In this document: piece by piece, positions 18,104 to 56,768 of the stretch
Layout of the letters: the number at the start of each line of letters is the position of its first letter
How positions within the stretch are numbered: the first letter of the stretch is position 1
From: a virus
Reading direction: 5' to 3' (one strand)
Length of the DNA stretch: 64,000 bases
IMG/VR virus record: IMGVR_UViG_3300045256_000567
The notes under the pieces: model-generated
Database searches by the model: none
What the model was told of the DNA's origin: nothing
The model's input: only the letters and a program-made list of their open reading frames with translations
Translations under genes and position numbers: made by a program

Positions 18104-18744
18104 AGCCTATCTGTACTAGAGAATATTAATTCTGCTGCGTTTGTATTTGCAGGTATGTTAGAAACTTTTACTAATTTACTAAAATTTAATTCGGGAACAG
18201 AAGCTATATAATCGTAGGATCTATTTAAGTTTATTTCAAAATATCCACTAGAGTCGGTTATTGTTGAAGTAGTCATAGAACTATATGGAGAATTATCTGT
18301 ATAAGTAAGAGTATTTGCTACAGTAAAAGATAAAACTTTATCACTTAGCGGATTTCCTAAAGCATCATAAATATTTCCATAAATTTTTACTAACGAAGGA
18401 TTGACGAAATAATTTCCATAATGAATAAATTTGCTATCTTCTGAAATACCATCAGATATTTTTATATCTAATATAGATGGTTTTGGTAAAACAGACGAGG
18501 GAATTTCTACTATATAATAAAATTTTCCAACTTCAAAATCATTTAAAAATACACTATGTTGATATGTTGTGGAGTTTGGTGAAGAAGATGTACTCCATTT
18601 GTTTTGTATCAAATTAAAGTACACATATAAATTGTTTGTATAAATAAAAATAGTTAAAGTCAAATCATTAGTATTGTTTTTTCTAGCTAGAAAAGTTAAT
18701 TTTTCTCCAAATTTAAAATATTCTTTTATATATAGGTTGACCAT
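18097..18744 (-). CDS. hypothetical virion protein with carboxypeptidase-regulatory-like domain
   Basis: IYGNIYDALGNPL...TDSSGYFEINL. Confidence 0.55.
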   Translation of the reverse strand: MVNLYIKEYFKFGEKLTFLARKNNTNDLTLTIFIYTNNLYVYFNLIQNKWSTSSSPNSTTYQHSVFLNDFEVGKFYYIVEIPSSVLPKPSILDIKISDGISEDSKFIHYGNYFVNPSLVKIYGNIYDALGNPLSDKVLSFTVANTLTYTDNSPYSSMTTSTITDSSGYFEINLNRSYDYIASVPELNFSKLVKVSNIPANTNAAELIFSSTDRLC

Positions 18745-18751
18745 TTAATTT

Positions 18752-18778
18752 ATTATAGCACGTTTGCAGAAAACCTAC
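18752..18778 (-). promoter_or_regulatory. promoter motif copy, leaderless; overlaps the predicted TnpB guide
   Basis: GTAGGTTTTCTGCAAACGTGCTATAAT, 7 nt before ATG 18744. Confidence 0.75.
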
Positions 18779-18924
18779 GAGTGACGACTCCCAATTCTAA
18801 AGAATTGGGCTTCTCGCAAGAAGCGAAGGCTCCGTCCGAGCCTTAGCCAAGATATTTTGTGCCGCTGCAATATCCCGATGAAGGGTTGTATTGCATTTGG
18901 CGCAGGTATAGGTACGTATCCAAA
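18761..18924 (-). ncRNA. TnpB omega/reRNA (scaffold overlapping tnpB 3' end, plus guide at 18780-18761)
   Basis: Hairpin GGCTC-GGACG-GAGCC whose loop can pair with the terminal CGTC (pseudoknot), hairpin TCGC/GCGA, right-end hairpin CCCAATTCT/AGAATTGGG, end at TCAC. The 5' boundary is uncertain. Confidence 0.75.
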
Positions 18925-20080
18925 GTGGGTGTTTTTCTCTGTTACCACAAACAGGACAATCTTGGCTTGTGTATTTTGGGTCTACTTTTATTACTTGCCT
19001 ACCAGCTTCCTCCGCTTTGTAGGCAAGTATTGCTAGGAACTGTGCCCAACCTGCATCTAGGATACCTTTAGCTGTTCTAGTTTGAGCAAGTTGTTTTATA
19101 TCTAGGTCTTCGTGTACTATGGTTCCATATTTATTCACCAAGTCCTTTGCTACCTTGTGATGAAAATCCTTTCTTTGGTTTGCTATTTTTCGATGTACCT
19201 TGGCAACTAGTTTCTTAGCCTTGGTTCTTCTGTTGCTACCAGGTTTTCTTTTTGAAACTATTTGTTGTGCTTTGGCAAGCCTATCTTCAGACTTCTTGAA
19301 ATACCTAGGAGCAGGAACCATTTCACTGTCAGAGGTGGTTAGGAAGTTTGGGTTAGTACCAAGGTCTATTCCAACTGCATCTTGGTTTACAGGAAGTTTT
19401 TTTGGTTCTGTGATACAGGTGAAAATGACATACCATTCATCATTCTCCCTTTTTATAGAAGCTGTCTTTATTTGACCTTCAAGCGGTCTGTGAAACTTGC
19501 ATTTGATAGAACCAATCTTATGAACCAAAACTCTGTTTTTACCTTCTTGAATCTTGATTCCTGTTTTGCTTACTTGAGTAAAGGTGAAGCTGTCATACCT
19601 ATTTTCACCCTTGAATCTTGGGAAACCAGGTGTTTCACCTTTCTTTATACGCCTAAAAAAGCCTTGGTAGGCTTTATCTAACCTTTGTAGCACATCCTGA
19701 AGAACTTGACTATGTATATTCTTGTATTCTGGAAACTCTTCCTTTAGTTTAGGAAGTTGACTATTTTGCTCGTAACGGCTAATGGTCTTTTTGGAACTTT
19801 TGTACACGTCACGTCTTTTTTCCAAAGCAGTATTGTACAATTGACGACACAGAAACAAGGTTTTCTCTAAATCCTTGATCTGAGGCTTGGTTGGATACAG
19901 TCGGTACTTGAAAGACTTGATCATTGCTGACCTTTATTATACCATATTCAGGAATGTCACACTATTCAATCGCTTGTACATTATACCAAAAATTTATTAC
20001 CATTGTATTATGTGAGGGAGTCCATGTATCCCCGCTTTGAAAAGCGGGGAATTATAGCTCCCCCACACCCCCTCAATTTT
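18781..20080 (-). mobile_element. IS200/IS605-family (IS1341-type, tnpB only) element
   Basis: Right end GAAG-hairpin-GTCGTCAC at 18781, tnpB, and left-end-like hairpin TCCCCGCTTT/AAAGCGGGGA at 20029-20050. The left boundary lies between 20072 and 20080. No tnpA in the window. Confidence 0.8.
18797..19924 (-). CDS. tnpB: RNA-guided endonuclease TnpB
   Basis: KSFKYRLYPT N-terminus, GFPRFK, RuvC-I GIDLG, RuvC-II HEDL, Zn finger CPVC/CAKC, RuvC-III HRDIAAAQNI. Visibly more GC-rich than its neighbours. Confidence 0.96.
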   Translation of the reverse strand: MIKSFKYRLYPTKPQIKDLEKTLFLCRQLYNTALEKRRDVYKSSKKTISRYEQNSQLPKLKEEFPEYKNIHSQVLQDVLQRLDKAYQGFFRRIKKGETPGFPRFKGENRYDSFTFTQVSKTGIKIQEGKNRVLVHKIGSIKCKFHRPLEGQIKTASIKRENDEWYVIFTCITEPKKLPVNQDAVGIDLGTNPNFLTTSDSEMVPAPRYFKKSEDRLAKAQQIVSKRKPGSNRRTKAKKLVAKVHRKIANQRKDFHHKVAKDLVNKYGTIVHEDLDIKQLAQTRTAKGILDAGWAQFLAILAYKAEEAGRQVIKVDPKYTSQDCPVCGNREKHPLWIRTYTCAKCNTTLHRDIAAAQNILAKARTEPSLLARSPIL

Positions 20081-20098
20081 TTAAAGGTGTAGGGTTAC

Positions 20099-20131
20099 AA
20101 TTCCCAGTTCTTTAGAACTGGGAATCGTCAC
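20099..20131 (+). repeat. divergent copy of the IS605-type right end
   Basis: TTCCCAGTTCTTTAGAACTGGGAATCGTCAC versus GCCCAATTCTTTAGAATTGGGAGTCGTCAC, with a compensatory A-T to G-C stem change. Confidence 0.8.
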
Positions 20132-23100: not shown

Positions 23101-23253
23101 ACCCTTTCTTTTCCATGTCGGGGATTTTATATAATAAACATCTGGATAGGTATGTATTTTTATTGCTTCCCTATCAGGAAAAACAAAAGAAGAATTACCT
23201 ATGATATCTGGTGATGTGTATTCATTAATATCTGAACAACCTAAAGTTCTCAT
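20128..23253 (-). CDS. large Asn/Tyr/Phe-rich putative virion protein (1041 aa)
   Basis: Start moved to ATG 23253, 7 nt after TATAAT; the ORF-track extension runs through a palindrome. Confidence 0.65.
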   Translation of the reverse strand: MRTLGCSDINEYTSPDIIGNSSFVFPDREAIKIHTYPDVYYIKSPTWKRKGFVDITTKSTLKQVVSSFLLNNLTKEKVLPKFAIFDEINNKYIFIDPSNTGVDLSLVNLILDKLPDNHPVDNYYNGFSINYNIQDINKSIGVAESSFDSTYNTNLFNVGFSFAGILTIDIFVVVYGNDSIDPTYNFVSPSIGQNIYPKYYIYSLYLPFTYDGNYKANSDNIYETTINNFSISNFYYENSKYSNNLNDFYFLSLIPGKEIFYKINPEGPLTSLNFSKNITAAENMESVPIGTNKFFGYSPEVNNFGFNTGGQNGFKDFYTDNGAVFSNNNDTYCTIDVKTSNVPVKVCFHFDKDYLSFSGNFTYSFNTINNQNPLNKLGIFEFLNPQIDSGIFLTAKNFLDNFYPAIYNVISNFSTSTINSILSLGTYSSSLGSYSGSISLPSINFGRLFVYKALKLFVEDEFAQNDKKYYFNKNTYSNLKAWVLNNFYFSDLTSLSSNNKPVVVLYKNNNDKNNPNRFILYSYVPAYDQTPREFTLDIPDFNNFNDFISSLNSLTLNYLTQTYPGVDVSSSSWQSEDMMFLTQLPSHQDLSIVRNVFTHVPLVSLKNNSNALNEFLQFLSDIFNYGNKYSPTRFFSLFSYFGPSNINSDNEFTSKTDIISINNNIVDFIPPLDLPLSNYVNNNIKPYILNSEYFSFIDVGGYTTYLSEDTYVYDPLSVRIKFKGESFSKTQATNDASLSYPVFDFIFVEYLPIVFKDKNLNLNIKLNNNDYLSTSQILNYFNGRVSLAEFSSSPDKSPRSTVHVFRPYVFNIDVINPENQDLQDLIPATFIYTYNFSFKNLLNSSFDFNYYLPCYFSFLSQHLDICIENFLYNEEVISNDQYYINKFSSFSLNVTNYLISNKNAVINELLLDINNYNINSDNSLFISDKKLFPHGYKFESGKTYYIIALNADGDANLIINKSSGFDTRNDPLDSSTYEFIRPVFLTSTSYCYNLRILDTSIQNLYIPYQLIIDTPSQSYRMLNLPYSISNEIYVLVLHPNP

Positions 23254-23260
23254 AAAAGAA

Positions 23261-23353
23261 ATTATAGCAAAGTTTGCAGAAAACTTACAAAATATGTTTG
23301 CATTCATCCTACGCTTAAAAGCGTAGGCTTTCTGCAAACATATTTTGTAAAAT
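23261..23353. promoter_or_regulatory. palindromic IS605-type left end(s) forming a divergent promoter region
   Basis: 18-bp perfect inverted repeat 23285-23302/23333-23350 around the hairpin CCTACGCTT/AAGCGTAGG. On the minus strand, TTAC-15 nt-AAAG-hairpin. -10 boxes TATAAT (23266-23261) and TAAAAT (23348-23353). Confidence 0.75.
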
Positions 23354-23359
23354 ATTTCT

Positions 23360-24067
23360 ATGGAAAAGAAAATTAAATTAGAACTTAAAAAGAAACTTAT
23401 AGATCTAGTATCTCAATTTGAAGTTTCACGAGATTGGGGTAGGGTTGCTGGAAATTTTGATGGACAAATTTTGTCTTACGGTCCTTTACAGTGGAATATT
23501 GGACAAAGCACTCTTTTTTACGTTTTAAAAAGGATTCCTCAAGAAGTTTTGGAAAAATATCTTGGTTCTGATTTTGTTAAAAGTTTGTCCTCAAATTCTT
23601 CATTGAGGTATTTTGTTTTACACAATATCTTAGGCAAAAATGGAAATGTTCTTCCTGGTTGGTCTAAAAAATTTTCTGATCTAGCTAAAGAGCCTTCTGT
23701 TATATCCGCATTTGTAGTTTCTGCGGAGCCTTACTTTATAAAATCTAACGATTGTTTAAATGAACTTGGTTTTACTACAGAAAGAGGAGCAGCTTTATGT
23801 TTTGACATAACTGTACAAAATGGTGGTCTAAGAAAAGATCATAAAATTTTATATACTAGGTATATAAGCACTAAAAATCCGCAAAATGAGTGGGAAAAAT
23901 ATAAAATACTAGCAAATGTAATTGCTGAATTAGCTAACCCACAGTGGAAAAATGATGTATTAAATAGAAAACTTACCATTGCACTTGGTAAGGGTTCTGT
24001 GCATGGAGTAAATATAGATTTAGAAAAAGATTTTGATATTTCTTATAATCGAACCTGGTACATGTGA
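23360..24067 (+). CDS. lysozyme-fold peptidoglycan hydrolase (putative endolysin)
   Basis: FEVS...GNFDGQILSYGPLQWNIGQ and ALCFDITVQNGG, typical of lysozyme/chitosanase-fold muramidases. Confidence 0.7.
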   Translation: MEKKIKLELKKKLIDLVSQFEVSRDWGRVAGNFDGQILSYGPLQWNIGQSTLFYVLKRIPQEVLEKYLGSDFVKSLSSNSSLRYFVLHNILGKNGNVLPGWSKKFSDLAKEPSVISAFVVSAEPYFIKSNDCLNELGFTTERGAALCFDITVQNGGLRKDHKILYTRYISTKNPQNEWEKYKILANVIAELANPQWKNDVLNRKLTIALGKGSVHGVNIDLEKDFDISYNRTWYM

Positions 24068-24078
24068 CGACACCGCAC

Positions 24079-24312
24079 GTGACGACTCCCAATTCTAAAG
24101 AATTGGGCTTCTCGTAATTAACGAAGGCTCCGTCCAAGCCATTATCGGTATTTTCTTATTTTCCCGATGATTACCTTGAATCTTATAATTCAAGTACCTA
24201 CCAGCATTTTCAGCTTTGTAGGATTTGGTGTGCTTCTTTTGCACAAGTTTATTATAGCACAGTTTGCAGAAAGCCTACTCCTAAAATCACAGGCTTTCTG
24301 CAAACTTGTATT
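24079..24312 (-). mobile_element. non-autonomous IS605 derivative (MITE-like) carrying a stand-alone omega-RNA scaffold
   Basis: Left end TTAC|15 nt|AAAG-hairpin, tnpB remnants (24197-24222 matches 18998-19023 at 22/26), and a right end identical to that of tnpB over the last ~35 nt. Confidence 0.8.
24251..24278 (-). promoter_or_regulatory. promoter motif copy pointing into the omega-RNA-like sequence
   Basis: GTAGGCTTTCTGCAAACTGTGCTATAAT with no credible CDS downstream. Confidence 0.7.
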
Positions 24313-24334
24313 GTAAGAACATATAGTGTATACT
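24306..24334 (+). promoter_or_regulatory. sigma-A-type promoter, leaderless
   Basis: TTGTAT-17 nt-TATACT, 7 nt before ATG 24342. Confidence 0.6.
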
Positions 24335-24341
24335 AAACACA

Positions 24342-24914
24342 ATGGGCTTCTCACTATTTTTAGACGTTGCCTTAAGAAATACAGGTCTCGCATTAATTGA
24401 GGATTTGAACATCATAAATTTAGATATTATTAAATATAAAAACAGTTTTGACGGAATAGATTTTGTATCTATAGACGGGCACAGAAAGTTTTTAGTTAAA
24501 AACTTTAAAGAATTAAAGGAAAATTATAAAATAAAAAAACTAGATAGAATTTTTTTAGAAGCAGATGTTTTTGGATTTAGGAAGGGGGGGTTTAAAATAA
24601 AAGAACTAATGACTATAGTAAGAATTAATTATGCATTTTCATTACAGCAAGTTTTTAATTTAAATGCTAAGTATATAAAATTTATACCAGCACATATTTG
24701 GAAAAAAGAACTTTTCGGGTCTTCCAATATAAAAAAGCCTTTATATAAAGACTTTGTTATTAGTAAAGTTGAAGAAATAACATGCAGCACATTAAATAAA
24801 AAAATTTCTCACGATATAGTTGATTCTTTAGGAATCTTTTTATATGATTACAAAATGTCTTGCGGGAATTGTAATGATAATCTCGTTTTTTCTCCTCCTG
24901 ATGGACAATACTGA
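24342..24914 (+). CDS. RuvC-like Holliday junction resolvase
   Basis: LFLDVALRNTG, IFLEAD, PAHIWKK and HDIVDSLGI acidic-residue pattern. Confidence 0.75.
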   Translation: MGFSLFLDVALRNTGLALIEDLNIINLDIIKYKNSFDGIDFVSIDGHRKFLVKNFKELKENYKIKKLDRIFLEADVFGFRKGGFKIKELMTIVRINYAFSLQQVFNLNAKYIKFIPAHIWKKELFGSSNIKKPLYKDFVISKVEEITCSTLNKKISHDIVDSLGIFLYDYKMSCGNCNDNLVFSPPDGQY

Positions 24915-35688: not shown

Positions 35689-35710
35689 TTTTTGCAAACT
35701 GTTCTATAAT
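35689..35710 (+). promoter_or_regulatory. degenerate promoter motif copy upstream of the terminase cluster
   Basis: TTTTTGCAAACTGTTCTATAAT, 6 nt before in-frame GTG 35717. Confidence 0.5.
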
Positions 35711-47292: not shown

Positions 47293-48196
47293 ATGTGAAA
47301 TTTAGAAGTACTCTTTTTGTTGGAGCGTCCTCACTTATATATCTAAATAATAAAAATGGATAATACGTTTGGTTTCTAAATGGTGGGACATTGTTATATT
47401 GTGGTTTTAAATTGACAGGGCCATTATTTTCACTTACCGAAGTTATGCTTGTTTGACCATAATTGATTAAATTTTGTACAGCCAAAACAAAATTTCCAGT
47501 AGTGGGGTCTATATTATCCATAAAATCATTTGTATTATTTGATTGAAGAACAGAAAATCTATATTTAATAATTTGATTAAAAAATCCCAACTGATTTGAA
47601 TATGTTGGATTATTTGTAAGAAACATAGTATTGTAGGAGTTAGAGGTACCAGCTATAGCATTTAAATATGCTGGTTTAGATGGATCATTAATTACGGTTT
47701 GGTGTATTATAGGTGCTGCAATAAAAATTCCATAATCTGGTGTACACCTTGAAGTATCAACAGAAAAAATTGGATTTGAAAGTATAAAATTGTTTTCGTT
47801 ATCTACGTTTGGATCTATTACTGTTGTATTAACAAAATACAATACTATAAAATCTATGTAATATCTTTTTCCATTAATTATATAAGGCCCATATCCATTA
47901 CATGATATGTTATCTGGAGAGGTTAAGCATGCAGAACTTCCTACATATAGATTCGAATTATTAAATTGCTTTATAAATTCCAAAAATTTTATCTTATATG
48001 ATGTTGTATCTTTATAGCCTATTAATTGAACATTTACTTTTTTTGAAGGATCTGGAAGTCCAATACTATTTAATTCATTTACATACGCCCATTCATAATT
48101 TGGATTTAATTGAGATGTTGTATTTATTATTATAGACCCCATTGGATCTATTACCGTATTTTGTCCATAAAATAGTGAAAATGTTTTGTCTGGCAT
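47276..48196 (-). CDS. putative virion protein
   Basis: 306 aa, Asn-rich, behind a motif promoter. Confidence 0.55.
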   Translation of the reverse strand: MPDKTFSLFYGQNTVIDPMGSIIINTTSQLNPNYEWAYVNELNSIGLPDPSKKVNVQLIGYKDTTSYKIKFLEFIKQFNNSNLYVGSSACLTSPDNISCNGYGPYIINGKRYYIDFIVLYFVNTTVIDPNVDNENNFILSNPIFSVDTSRCTPDYGIFIAAPIIHQTVINDPSKPAYLNAIAGTSNSYNTMFLTNNPTYSNQLGFFNQIIKYRFSVLQSNNTNDFMDNIDPTTGNFVLAVQNLINYGQTSITSVSENNGPVNLKPQYNNVPPFRNQTYYPFLLFRYISEDAPTKRVLLNFTFAPYA

Positions 48197-48207
48197 ATTC
48201 TAAAACA

Positions 48208-48235
48208 ATTATAGCACAGTTTGCAGAAAGCCTAC
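48208..48235 (-). promoter_or_regulatory. promoter motif copy (outward-facing from the MITE left end)
   Basis: GTAGGCTTTCTGCAAACTGTGCTATAAT, identical to 24251-24278. Confidence 0.75.
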
Positions 48236-48409
48236 ACCTTTATGTGTAGGATGAATGCAAACAAATTTGGATACGTACCTATACCTGCACCAAATGCAAC
48301 ACAACCCTTCATCGGGATATTGCAGCAGCACAAAATATCTTGGCTAAGGCTCTGACAAAGTCTTCGCTTCTTGCGAGAAGCCCAATTCTTTAGAATTGGG
48401 AGTCGTCAC
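48213..48409 (+). mobile_element. non-autonomous IS605 derivative: left end fused to tnpB 3' end/omega-RNA and right end
   Basis: TTAT|AGCACAGTTTGCAG-AAAG-CCTACAC/GTGTAGG hairpin, then 48266-48409 matching 18924-18781 with 7 differences in 144 nt. Confidence 0.85.
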
Positions 48410-54675: not shown

Positions 54676-56735
54676 TTCCTCCGCACCCCAATGTTGTACT
54701 TAGAGTAGAAATCTTTATTTATTATATTAGAATAAGAAATTCTGCAAACTTCTTTTTCTTTAGAAAAAGAATCCAGATCTTTGTACTGTATATATTGCAC
54801 ATCATTTAGTAAAGTATATAATAACTTTATTTCGTAAGAATTGCTTGAGCAGAATCCTGTTGTATCGTTTATTAAATTCTCACATAATTCGATATCATTG
54901 TCTGATGGTATAGGAAGAGTAAGGAATTTTATTTTTAAATAATTTGCTTCTACTGGATCAATACTTTCTACTGCTCTTAAACTCAAGCCTATTTTTGTAA
55001 AAGTGTTTAAATAATTTGATGCATTATTAAATGCTACTGAAGAAACCTCCTTAAAACATAGGTCTAAAGGCTTATTTTTACAATTAGTTTTAATTTCATT
55101 AATAAAATTAGTGTAATAATACCTATTTACACTATCTCCTAAAATATCCCCGTAAATATTGTTCAATATTTTTTCAACTATAGTTTTTTCCTGATAACGT
55201 GGTGCTTGTAAAAATAAATTACCGCCCGTTAAAGAAAATTTAGATAGGTAAGATATGTAGTTGTTGTAAGAATTAAAACCATTTTTAGAATATACGTATA
55301 ATGCCAATTTTCCTTGGTTAACAATATCTAAATATTCTGAATATGTAAAATATTGGGAGGGGTCAGAACACTTAGTAGGAATTTCGCTCAAACTGTTTGG
55401 AACAACATCATTATAGTAAGTCATGCATATAAAATTTTTATAAGTATTTTTATATAATTCAAATAATTCTGGGGTAAGGGAAAATCCCAAATATATATTA
55501 TTTACATTAAATTCATTGCTTAATATTTGCCAAATTTTTGAATAACTAATTTCTTCTCCAAGATCAAGTTTATTTAAATTATCTCCTAAGTATTGTTTTA
55601 GTCTGTTAATATCATTGTTAGATGATATGCTATCTGTTTCAAGAATTACATTAAATAAGTTGTTTTTCGCTAATCTTATGTTAATTATTGTTCCTGCCGG
55701 TTTAACGTCTTCAAGTTGCGACAAAAGCAAAGGTAAAAAGTTAGATATTGAACTAGAAGAAGTTATATATAAATCCAGTATTCCAGGATTATTTGTAGTG
55801 TATAATTGCGCTGAACTATTAGGAAGAAGTGTATATATTTTTGTTTGTATTGCTTGCAGAGTGCCTTTTGTTAAAGATCCTAAAAAGCTCCAATACCTTT
55901 GCCTATATGATTCATCGCTTTCCTCATCTATGCCTCCATTAATTTCAGAGCTATAGGCTAAAGTAAGCATCCCTCCTTCTACTTTTGCTATGGAATCAAT
56001 ATCTACAACAAGCTCGTTTGTAGGTAAGGAAGTATTTAATACATAATCAAAATTATTTTCTACTAAAAATTTAAAGTTTCCAGCATTTACAAAAGTATTA
56101 ACAACTCCACTACTAATATTTTTATTGCTTCCAGTATCAATAGAAATTAAAGGAAATACTAAATATTTGATATAAGAATTTGGATTTTGCTGTAATATAG
56201 ATATTGTATAGTTAGCTATCAATTCTGCTATTTTTTGATTTCCAGTGTCTGGATTTACTTCAAAAAATGATTCATCTGTTGCTTGTAAAAGTTTTATTGG
56301 AGGAAGTAATGCATAATCAAATATTCCATTAGTTGTAGATACTTTTATTGTAGAAGCTAAAGGTGGAGTATAAAGAACTCCAGAGTTCACGTCAAGTCTA
56401 CTAAATACTAACTTTGATAAAGAACTTGAAGTTATAGAATCAGATATATTAAAGCTTACAGGCATTAGGGTTACATATCCTAATGCTCTTGTTCCTTTTA
56501 TTCTTTCAATTTTAGATAATCCATAAATTAATTGATCTAAGTAAGATCCTGTAGCAGTATGCACATAACTATTATTTTTTATTTCATCTATAGATGAATA
56601 TACCTCTTCTAAAGCAGTTGAAACACTATAAAACATTGATTTTATAACGCTTCCATTTCTTAGAGCGTTAATTTTATTTTGTATAGTTAAAAATAAACTC
56701 TCTATAGAAGAAAGTATTTCAAATCTATCTGGCAC
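54672..56735 (-). CDS. baseplate J-like wedge protein
   Basis: TATGSYLD, GGIDEESDESYRQR, KGTLQAI and DVKPAGT. Confidence 0.85.
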   Translation of the reverse strand: MPDRFEILSSIESLFLTIQNKINALRNGSVIKSMFYSVSTALEEVYSSIDEIKNNSYVHTATGSYLDQLIYGLSKIERIKGTRALGYVTLMPVSFNISDSITSSSLSKLVFSRLDVNSGVLYTPPLASTIKVSTTNGIFDYALLPPIKLLQATDESFFEVNPDTGNQKIAELIANYTISILQQNPNSYIKYLVFPLISIDTGSNKNISSGVVNTFVNAGNFKFLVENNFDYVLNTSLPTNELVVDIDSIAKVEGGMLTLAYSSEINGGIDEESDESYRQRYWSFLGSLTKGTLQAIQTKIYTLLPNSSAQLYTTNNPGILDLYITSSSSISNFLPLLLSQLEDVKPAGTIINIRLAKNNLFNVILETDSISSNNDINRLKQYLGDNLNKLDLGEEISYSKIWQILSNEFNVNNIYLGFSLTPELFELYKNTYKNFICMTYYNDVVPNSLSEIPTKCSDPSQYFTYSEYLDIVNQGKLALYVYSKNGFNSYNNYISYLSKFSLTGGNLFLQAPRYQEKTIVEKILNNIYGDILGDSVNRYYYTNFINEIKTNCKNKPLDLCFKEVSSVAFNNASNYLNTFTKIGLSLRAVESIDPVEANYLKIKFLTLPIPSDNDIELCENLINDTTGFCSSNSYEIKLLYTLLNDVQYIQYKDLDSFSKEKEVCRISYSNIINKDFYSKYNIGVRRK

Positions 56736-56741
56736 AAATAG

Positions 56742-56768
56742 ATTATAGCATAGCTTGCAGAAAACCTA
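56742..56768 (-). promoter_or_regulatory. promoter motif copy heading the baseplate operon, leaderless
   Basis: TAGGTTTTCTGCAAGCTATGCTATAAT, 6 nt before GTG 56735. Its TAG is also the stop codon of the upstream gene. Confidence 0.75.

Follow-up and report, generated by a model that had tools for sequence, protein, structure and literature searches.

The DNA analysed here is a stretch of 64,000 nt, which we call the window, from an AT-rich phage related to the Thermus phages phiYS40 and TMA; over the ribonucleotide reductase region the DNA identity is about 68%. A JGI contig of 153,046 bp carries the window's proteins as well as five tnpB paralogues and two small ORF proteins that will matter below. 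To judge by this shared protein content, the host of the element described here is a 153-kb phiYS40-like Thermus phage. On one side of the element lies a convergent gene of 235 aa, whose protein is 59% identical to that of phiYS40 and 76% identical to one on an IMG/VR contig. On the other side lies a 190-aa gene that has its own TATACT 7 nt before the ATG (24326-24344, plus strand). This TATACT is outside the element, so the insertion falls between the end of one gene and the leaderless promoter of the next and disturbs neither of them. Coordinates of the features are collected in Table 1.

The window's tnpB gene encodes a protein whose RuvC D/E/D motifs (GIDLG, HEDL, HRD) are intact and which has a zinc finger, so it is one possible partner nuclease for the RNA discussed here. 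The nearest relatives of this protein come from Thermus, Meiothermus and Calidithermus and are about 65% identical to it. The first-pass annotation of this DNA, made from the letters alone, spoke of the single TnpB. There is one in the window, yet the genome holds at least five paralogues at about 90% identity: clustered at 90%, the window's TnpB falls into a group of six, and the 153-kb contig accounts for five of these. The Calidithermus and Meiothermus relatives have a Y1 tnpA gene beside tnpB. We found no Y1 transposase in the window or in about 27 kb of further phage loci. To move, the element would thus depend on an enzyme of the host, possibly a Y1 enzyme.

Table 1. Features of the mini-element and of the related tnpB and scaffold sequences in the window
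Feature	Coordinates	Strand	Basis or remark
TTAC at the left end, presumed insertion target and TnpB TAM	24313..24316	-	TTAC/TTAC/TTAT/TTAC before the four copies, where similarity between the copies starts
Left end with subterminal hairpin, perfect 15-bp arms (24291-24305 and 24262-24276)	24262..24312	-	Alignment with three sister copies; inverted repeat
Extended -10 promoter TG-C-TATAAT, predicted	24251..24259	-	TG-G-TATAAT here in the sister copies
5' half of the predicted RNA, three hairpins	24170..24244	-	Fold, alignment of the peptide remnant, differences between copies
Omega-RNA scaffold, ending at the right-end boundary GTCGTCAC	24079..24169	-	Covariance model R1; 3' 62 nt as in the L135 tnpB scaffold
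Would-be 20-nt guide, the right flank	24059..24078	-	Second GTCGTCAC at 24064-24071; phage gene sequence resumes at about 24062
Candidate terminator, hairpin and T run about 90 nt past the right end	23972..23992	-	Consensus scan; antisense within the convergent 235-aa gene
tnpB, 375 aa	18797..19924	-	Pfam OrfB_IS605, Cas12f1-like_TNB, HTH_OrfB_IS605
tnpB-linked scaffold	18781..18880	-	R1 score 99.4 bits
Second gene-less derivative	48212..48409	+	Left-end hairpin by TTAT (from 48208), joined to the final 144 nt of tnpB plus the right end
Scaffold copy	48310..48409		R1 score 82.4 bits, two non-standard pairs

A mini-element with its own predicted promoter

The flagged stretch is a full copy of a protein-less, non-autonomous mini-element of the IS200/IS605 group. 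It resembles the PATEs, is about 240 nt long and lies on the minus strand at about 24079-24312. The first-pass annotation had seen a stand-alone omega-RNA gene at 24057-24260. The core of this is correct, but the element reaches further, with its left-end hairpin and TTAC at 24262-24316.

Exact-sequence look-ups gave no record for a 49-aa ORF in the stretch or for two TnpB paralogues. A protein search with this ORF led to two "hypothetical proteins" of 62 aa, both encoded on the 153,046-bp contig. At the loci of these proteins lie three more copies of the mini-element (L132:2463-2705, L134:2755-3001 and L134:9970-10205), which makes at least four, all in different gene neighbourhoods and with four different flanks. 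They share a common plan: TTAC or TTAT, a left-end hairpin of the GTTTGCAG...CCTAC type, TG-n-TATAAT, about 75 nt of hairpins, the omega-RNA scaffold and the right end, whose hairpin is present in four of the four copies. Because the plan is common to all of them, the hairpin at 24262-24305 upstream of the promoter is the element's own left end. We can thus exclude the idea that the stretch is an internally deleted relic without a left end that became fused to a phage promoter by chance. The flagged copy does differ from its sisters in this region. Its right hairpin arm has been "symmetrised" into a perfect mirror of the left arm, unlike theirs, and the spacer between this hairpin and the -10 is shorter than in the sister copies.

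The promoter motif that the first pass saw pointing into about 165 nt is there, on the minus strand, and the start of transcription is predicted near 24244. It is identical in 21 of 21 positions to the motif before the gene starting at 48196. This 21-nt motif occurs six times in the window against an expectation of zero. In four of the other copies the -10 is followed at 6-7 nt by a start codon, the arrangement of a leaderless gene. Genes with this geometry start at 23253, 35717 and 56735, and a shortened copy of the motif precedes the gene at 18744. A -10 placed next to the start of an ORF, giving leaderless mRNA, is a common mode of expression in Deinococcus-Thermus (PMC12340547).

The repeats of the promoter motif lie at 2825-2845, 18752-18772, 23261-23281, 24251-24271, 35690-35710, 48208-48228 and 56742-56762 of the window. 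Read on the opposite strand the motif is TTAT followed by the first 20 or so nt of the mini-element's left end, so these promoters look like outward-facing left-end heads that rebuild TG-n-TATAAT. With up to three mismatches allowed, the motif is absent from phiYS40, phiLo, T72 and TSP4, and from the contig that carries the 76%-identical 235-aa protein.

The would-be guide of the window's tnpB element, that is, the flank past its right end, is the promoter motif of the gene starting at 18744 (18741-18780, minus strand), and its left flank (20079-20131) holds the other half of a CCTAC...GTAGG hairpin. The two flanks carry both halves, so the loop of a promoter hairpin is where the tnpB element lies. 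Just upstream, at 20103-20131 on the plus strand, a solo right-end hairpin stands in inverted orientation, and its GTGA provides the stop codon for a 1069-aa ORF. In the second gene-less derivative of the window (48212..48409) the GGCTC/GAGCC hairpin and the GACG loop are mutated, with four G-to-A/T changes, and this scaffold may be dead despite its 82 bits. A copy at L134:14380-14581 has the same four changes, but a Thermaceae-type left end.

L135:1-260 and L134:16080-16213 are one phage locus in two samples, with a full tnpB element in the first and a 26-nt right-end remnant in the second, so the elements are polymorphic between strains. For the mini-element itself, a search for evidence of mobility found no empty site or element-less sister genome, and the flanking proteins had no variants at 90% identity or above.

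Scaffold structure and its conservation

Covariance model R1 was made from 28 right-end scaffolds of tnpB elements, all from outside the window: Thermaceae genomes, hot-spring metagenomes and the Thermus phages T72, phiLo and TSP4. The consensus structure of the family consists of three hairpins and closing pairs. Compensatory changes occur in 10 of its 24 pairs, and a proposed GACG/CGTC pseudoknot is invariant. Against R1 the flagged stretch scores 63.3 bits (E 2e-17), and the match covers model positions 1-124. It lacks 9 nt of the first stem-loop and contains three non-standard pairs. In tnpB this first stem-loop is the part that encodes the HRD...NIL motif; here a different stem-loop occupies its place, and the stem in the flagged copy has an internal mismatch that is absent in the L134 copies. 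The scaffold terminates where the family does, at the invariant GTCGTCAC at 24079, and the flank that follows differs in all four copies. This model match supports reading the flagged stretch as a unit that lacks TnpB but has an intact omega-RNA scaffold, with a predicted promoter of its own.

Rfam gave no family at the gathering score for the window and seven related loci, and what a permissive scan returned was sub-threshold noise. Exact-pattern scans of viral and metagenome contigs for the AT-rich right end had no match. A looser pattern for the right-end family found 38 loci, none of them from this phage.

The 62-nt TnpB scaffold of the first-pass annotation is confirmed by direct comparison, since 24079-24140 and the 3' end of tnpB (18781-18842) share 92% identity. 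The five differences do preserve the structure, as had been claimed: they are one compensatory pair, one change from C-G to U-G and two loop changes. The compensatory changes are real but they are not special to the flagged copy. At the P0130 locus (L135), which has a full-length tnpB paralogue, the scaffold is identical to that of the flagged copy in 62 of 62 nt, so the changes must have been inherited from, or exchanged with, a full-length paralogue. The C-termini of the TnpB paralogues differ exactly at the positions where the scaffolds vary. TnpBs of type P0007/P0130 end like the remnant in the flagged copy, and another type carries the variant of the L134 copies.

The 5' half of the predicted RNA is not simply a piece of tnpB. 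Its CCTAC/GTAGG hairpin is inherited from the tnpB coding sequence, and the other hairpins of this half are absent from tnpB. The differences between copies in this region are within loops or improve pairs. The predicted transcript of 167 nt folds into seven hairpins with a z-score of -4.7, and none of 200 shuffled sequences folds as well.

Over the 173 nt from the -10 to the right end, the L132 copy and the flagged one do not differ. The L134 copies, too, are identical to each other, and 10 positions separate these two from the flagged and L132 pair. These 10 differences break none of the 47 predicted pairs. They comprise two compensatory double changes and one replacement of U-G by C-G; the remainder lie outside pairs, and one of these lengthens a stem in the L134 variant. 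When 10 changes are placed at random, no pair is broken in 0.3% (uniform) to 1.4% (transition-biased) of trials. It is important to realize that there are only two core sequence variants, hence this test of covariation between the copies has few events to work with. Read as protein, the same differences are 8 nonsynonymous against 1 synonymous. The absence of broken pairs together with the 8:1 ratio argues for selection on the structure of the nucleic acid and not on a peptide. These substitutions, we believe, show that what is conserved between the copies is an RNA or single-stranded DNA structure and not the ORF. The hairpins could serve recognition by a transposase on single-stranded DNA instead of acting as RNA.

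Two judgements of the first pass have to be adjusted on this basis. It saw no credible CDS. The substitution ratio does mark the stretch as non-coding, but an in-frame ORF of 49 codons (24244-24095) exists. As a fallback it offered a decayed MITE. MITE is closer to the truth, but "decayed" does not fit, since the element is a well-preserved member of a multi-copy family.

The right flank as a would-be guide

The 20-nt guide proposed in the first pass reads as it was given, including the second GTCGTCAC. This 8-mer has four occurrences in the 64 kb, namely three right ends and the copy in the flank. In a relative (L001) the 235-aa gene ends without the flank stretch. Between the right end and the point where phage gene sequence resumes there are 16 nt, in which 11 of 13 bases match the right-end terminus of the family, and the stop codon of the 235-aa gene is within them. 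Given this match and the rarity of GTCGTCAC, the flank is best read as the relic of an earlier right end, and the GC-richness of the flank probably stems from it as well. We rejected a different origin for the GC-rich flank, from the 3' half of an older right-end hairpin whose arms would be CCGCAC/GTGCGG, as no such right end occurs in 68 Thermaceae genomes. The flanks of the three sister copies are ordinary AT-rich phage sequence.

A search for targets of the guide gave nothing to build on. Its first 16 nt have no exact match in the 68 Thermaceae genomes. With one mismatch there are three matches in these genomes, where we estimate about four by chance, and none is beside a TTA-type motif. 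Neither the window nor the IMG/VR viral contigs gave any other match. The claim that this is a second guide aimed at host or competitor DNA is therefore not supported: it is derived from the flank, has no targets beyond chance in the sequences searched, and the corresponding flanks of the sister copies are AT-rich.

Possible roles and known relatives

We think it probable that this is a selfish PATE-like mini-element whose RNA borrows TnpB in trans for homing and retention, with a guide that the phage did not choose. The internal promoter, the intact scaffold and the conserved structure together make trans use by a resident TnpB plausible. In PATEs one often finds omega-RNAs that depend on a TnpB acting in trans (PMC10055086), and compatible effectors use standalone omega-RNAs in trans (PMC10691335). 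Under this scenario the host RNA polymerase would start at the internal promoter and transcribe about 165 nt followed by the flank, and a resident TnpB would bind the mini-element's scaffold in trans. With the flank as guide, the complex would cleave element-less phage genomes at TTAC plus the flank. The targets would be a co-infecting sister phage or a copy that had lost the element, and recombinational repair from the occupied copy would then restore or spread it. A selfish cycle of homing and retention has already been described for TnpB elements.

It is also possible, though we consider it unlikely, that the element is a real mini-element copy, transcribed or a silent passenger, whose RNA is not used by TnpB. 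It would persist because it is recent, perhaps with a useful or harmless promoter or hairpins, as a mobile promoter or terminator. The 173-nt identity to another copy fits this, suggesting a recent arrival that is possibly unselected at the flagged site. So do the three sister copies, which all face downstream genes and could act as their promoters, the rearranged left end of the flagged copy and a guide without a known target. However, the flagged copy faces a convergent gene and so provides no useful promoter here. The differences between variants spare all predicted pairs, including those of the scaffold, and two compensatory pairs are among them. The covariance-model match is full-length and as good as the matches of TnpB-less units in other genomes.

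The reading of the first-pass annotation, in which the stretch is a domesticated extra guide that lets the phage TnpB attack host or competitor DNA in trans, now looks improbable to us. An own promoter and an intact scaffold are what such a guide would have, its GC-richness is like that of Thermus DNA, and standalone omega-RNAs can act in trans (PMC10691335). Against this stand the target searches in the 68 Thermaceae genomes, in which there was no exact match and the one-mismatch matches were at chance level and without a TTA-type motif. The GC-rich part is the relic of an IS right end, a matching hairpin is absent from the right ends of the host, and the guides of the sister copies are arbitrary AT-rich flanks. 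The genome has many TnpBs and not one. For a TldR-like or defence-like role we looked for a TAM-flanked target and a conserved guide; no match beyond chance turned up in the Thermaceae genomes, the window or viral contigs, and the guides differ between copies.

One could extend the idea to all copies at once. They would then form a dispersed, promoter-driven guide library for the five TnpB paralogues, cutting element-less sister phages or other IS copies. We doubt this strongly. If true, the mini-elements would be weapons in phage-phage competition, beyond selfish passengers, and the flagged guide, built on the relic of a right end, would be aimed at IS-marked sites.

That the RNA is an antisense regulator of the convergent 235-aa gene, pairing with its 3' end, is very improbable. 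The transcript would cover 24067-23972, antisense to that gene, and a terminator-like site lies at 23992-23972, but none of the three other copies faces a gene in convergent orientation, so any such effect would be a side effect of the flagged insertion site. Finally, a small leaderless gene for a protein of 49 aa (62 aa in the sister copies, where it is annotated), a remnant of the TnpB C-terminus, can hardly be credited: the ORF is uninterrupted and shares the frame of tnpB, its GTG follows the -10 by 6 nt as in the real leaderless genes at 56735 and 35717, and JGI annotates a hypothetical protein, but there are 7 amino-acid changes in 62 residues with the nonsynonymous excess given above, the start codon varies between copies, and there is no Pfam match and no relative besides the mini-element copies.

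We return then to a selfish mini-element that would borrow TnpB. It belongs to a kind that has already been described and reveals no new kind of system. What it offers is a favourable place to study this kind. Its parent nucleases are available, as are four copies that fall into two variants, whose differences show selection on structure and not on the ORF. Trans use of the omega-RNA and homing between co-infecting phages are directly testable in Thermus, and the element offers a compact, presumably thermostable pair of TnpB and guide.

The closest known system is that of the PATEs of Geobacillus stearothermophilus (Meers et al. 2023, PMC10055086). They likewise have no protein gene, have hairpin ends and a right-end omega-RNA that would have to borrow TnpB, and occur in several copies alongside full-length tnpB elements in one genome. 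The differences are these. PATEs are found in a bacterial chromosome, whereas the flagged element is in a lytic-type 153-kb Thermus phage. It has its own consensus extended -10 promoter, and its 5' half has been rebuilt and is no plain deletion of tnpB. Its left end, with a GTTTGCAG-type hairpin and a TTAC/TTAT target, is unlike the left end of the window's resident tnpB element. Its mobility and its use of TnpB in trans are putative. The standalone omega-RNAs of the OMEGA systems (Altae-Tran et al. 2021, as cited in PMC10691335) are likewise loci without an effector or transposase beside loci that contain effectors. As described there, their function in trans is experimental, whereas for the flagged element we have the sequence, the conservation of structure and a cognate nuclease. 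The tnpB-only elements of the ISDra2 type (IS1341-like) also share the scaffold that overlaps the 3' end of tnpB and the right end, the guide in the flank and a TTA-type target at the left end. The flagged element has no tnpB inside and its first stem-loop has been replaced.

TnpB-less units with TG-n-TATAAT and the same scaffold are also found elsewhere, at 72 bits against R1 in phiLo and at 60-72 bits on Thermaceae-like metagenome contigs. GC-rich TnpB-less elements of about 200-230 nt on metagenome contigs (L011, L012, L015, L025 and L027) have a conserved, structured 5' half that is not derived from tnpB, placed before the same right-end scaffold. No Rfam family covers these GC-rich elements. 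The phiLo mini-element (MH673673, L004:1372-1600), annotated as hypothetical protein phiLo_140, is in another Thermus phage with tnpB genes and is likewise about 235 nt long, with an internal TG-n-TATAAT and the right-end scaffold. Unlike the flagged element, it has a Thermaceae-type left end and a different, GC-rich 5' half. To this growing list of TnpB-less guide-RNA mini-elements the flagged element adds a clean case from a thermophilic phage.
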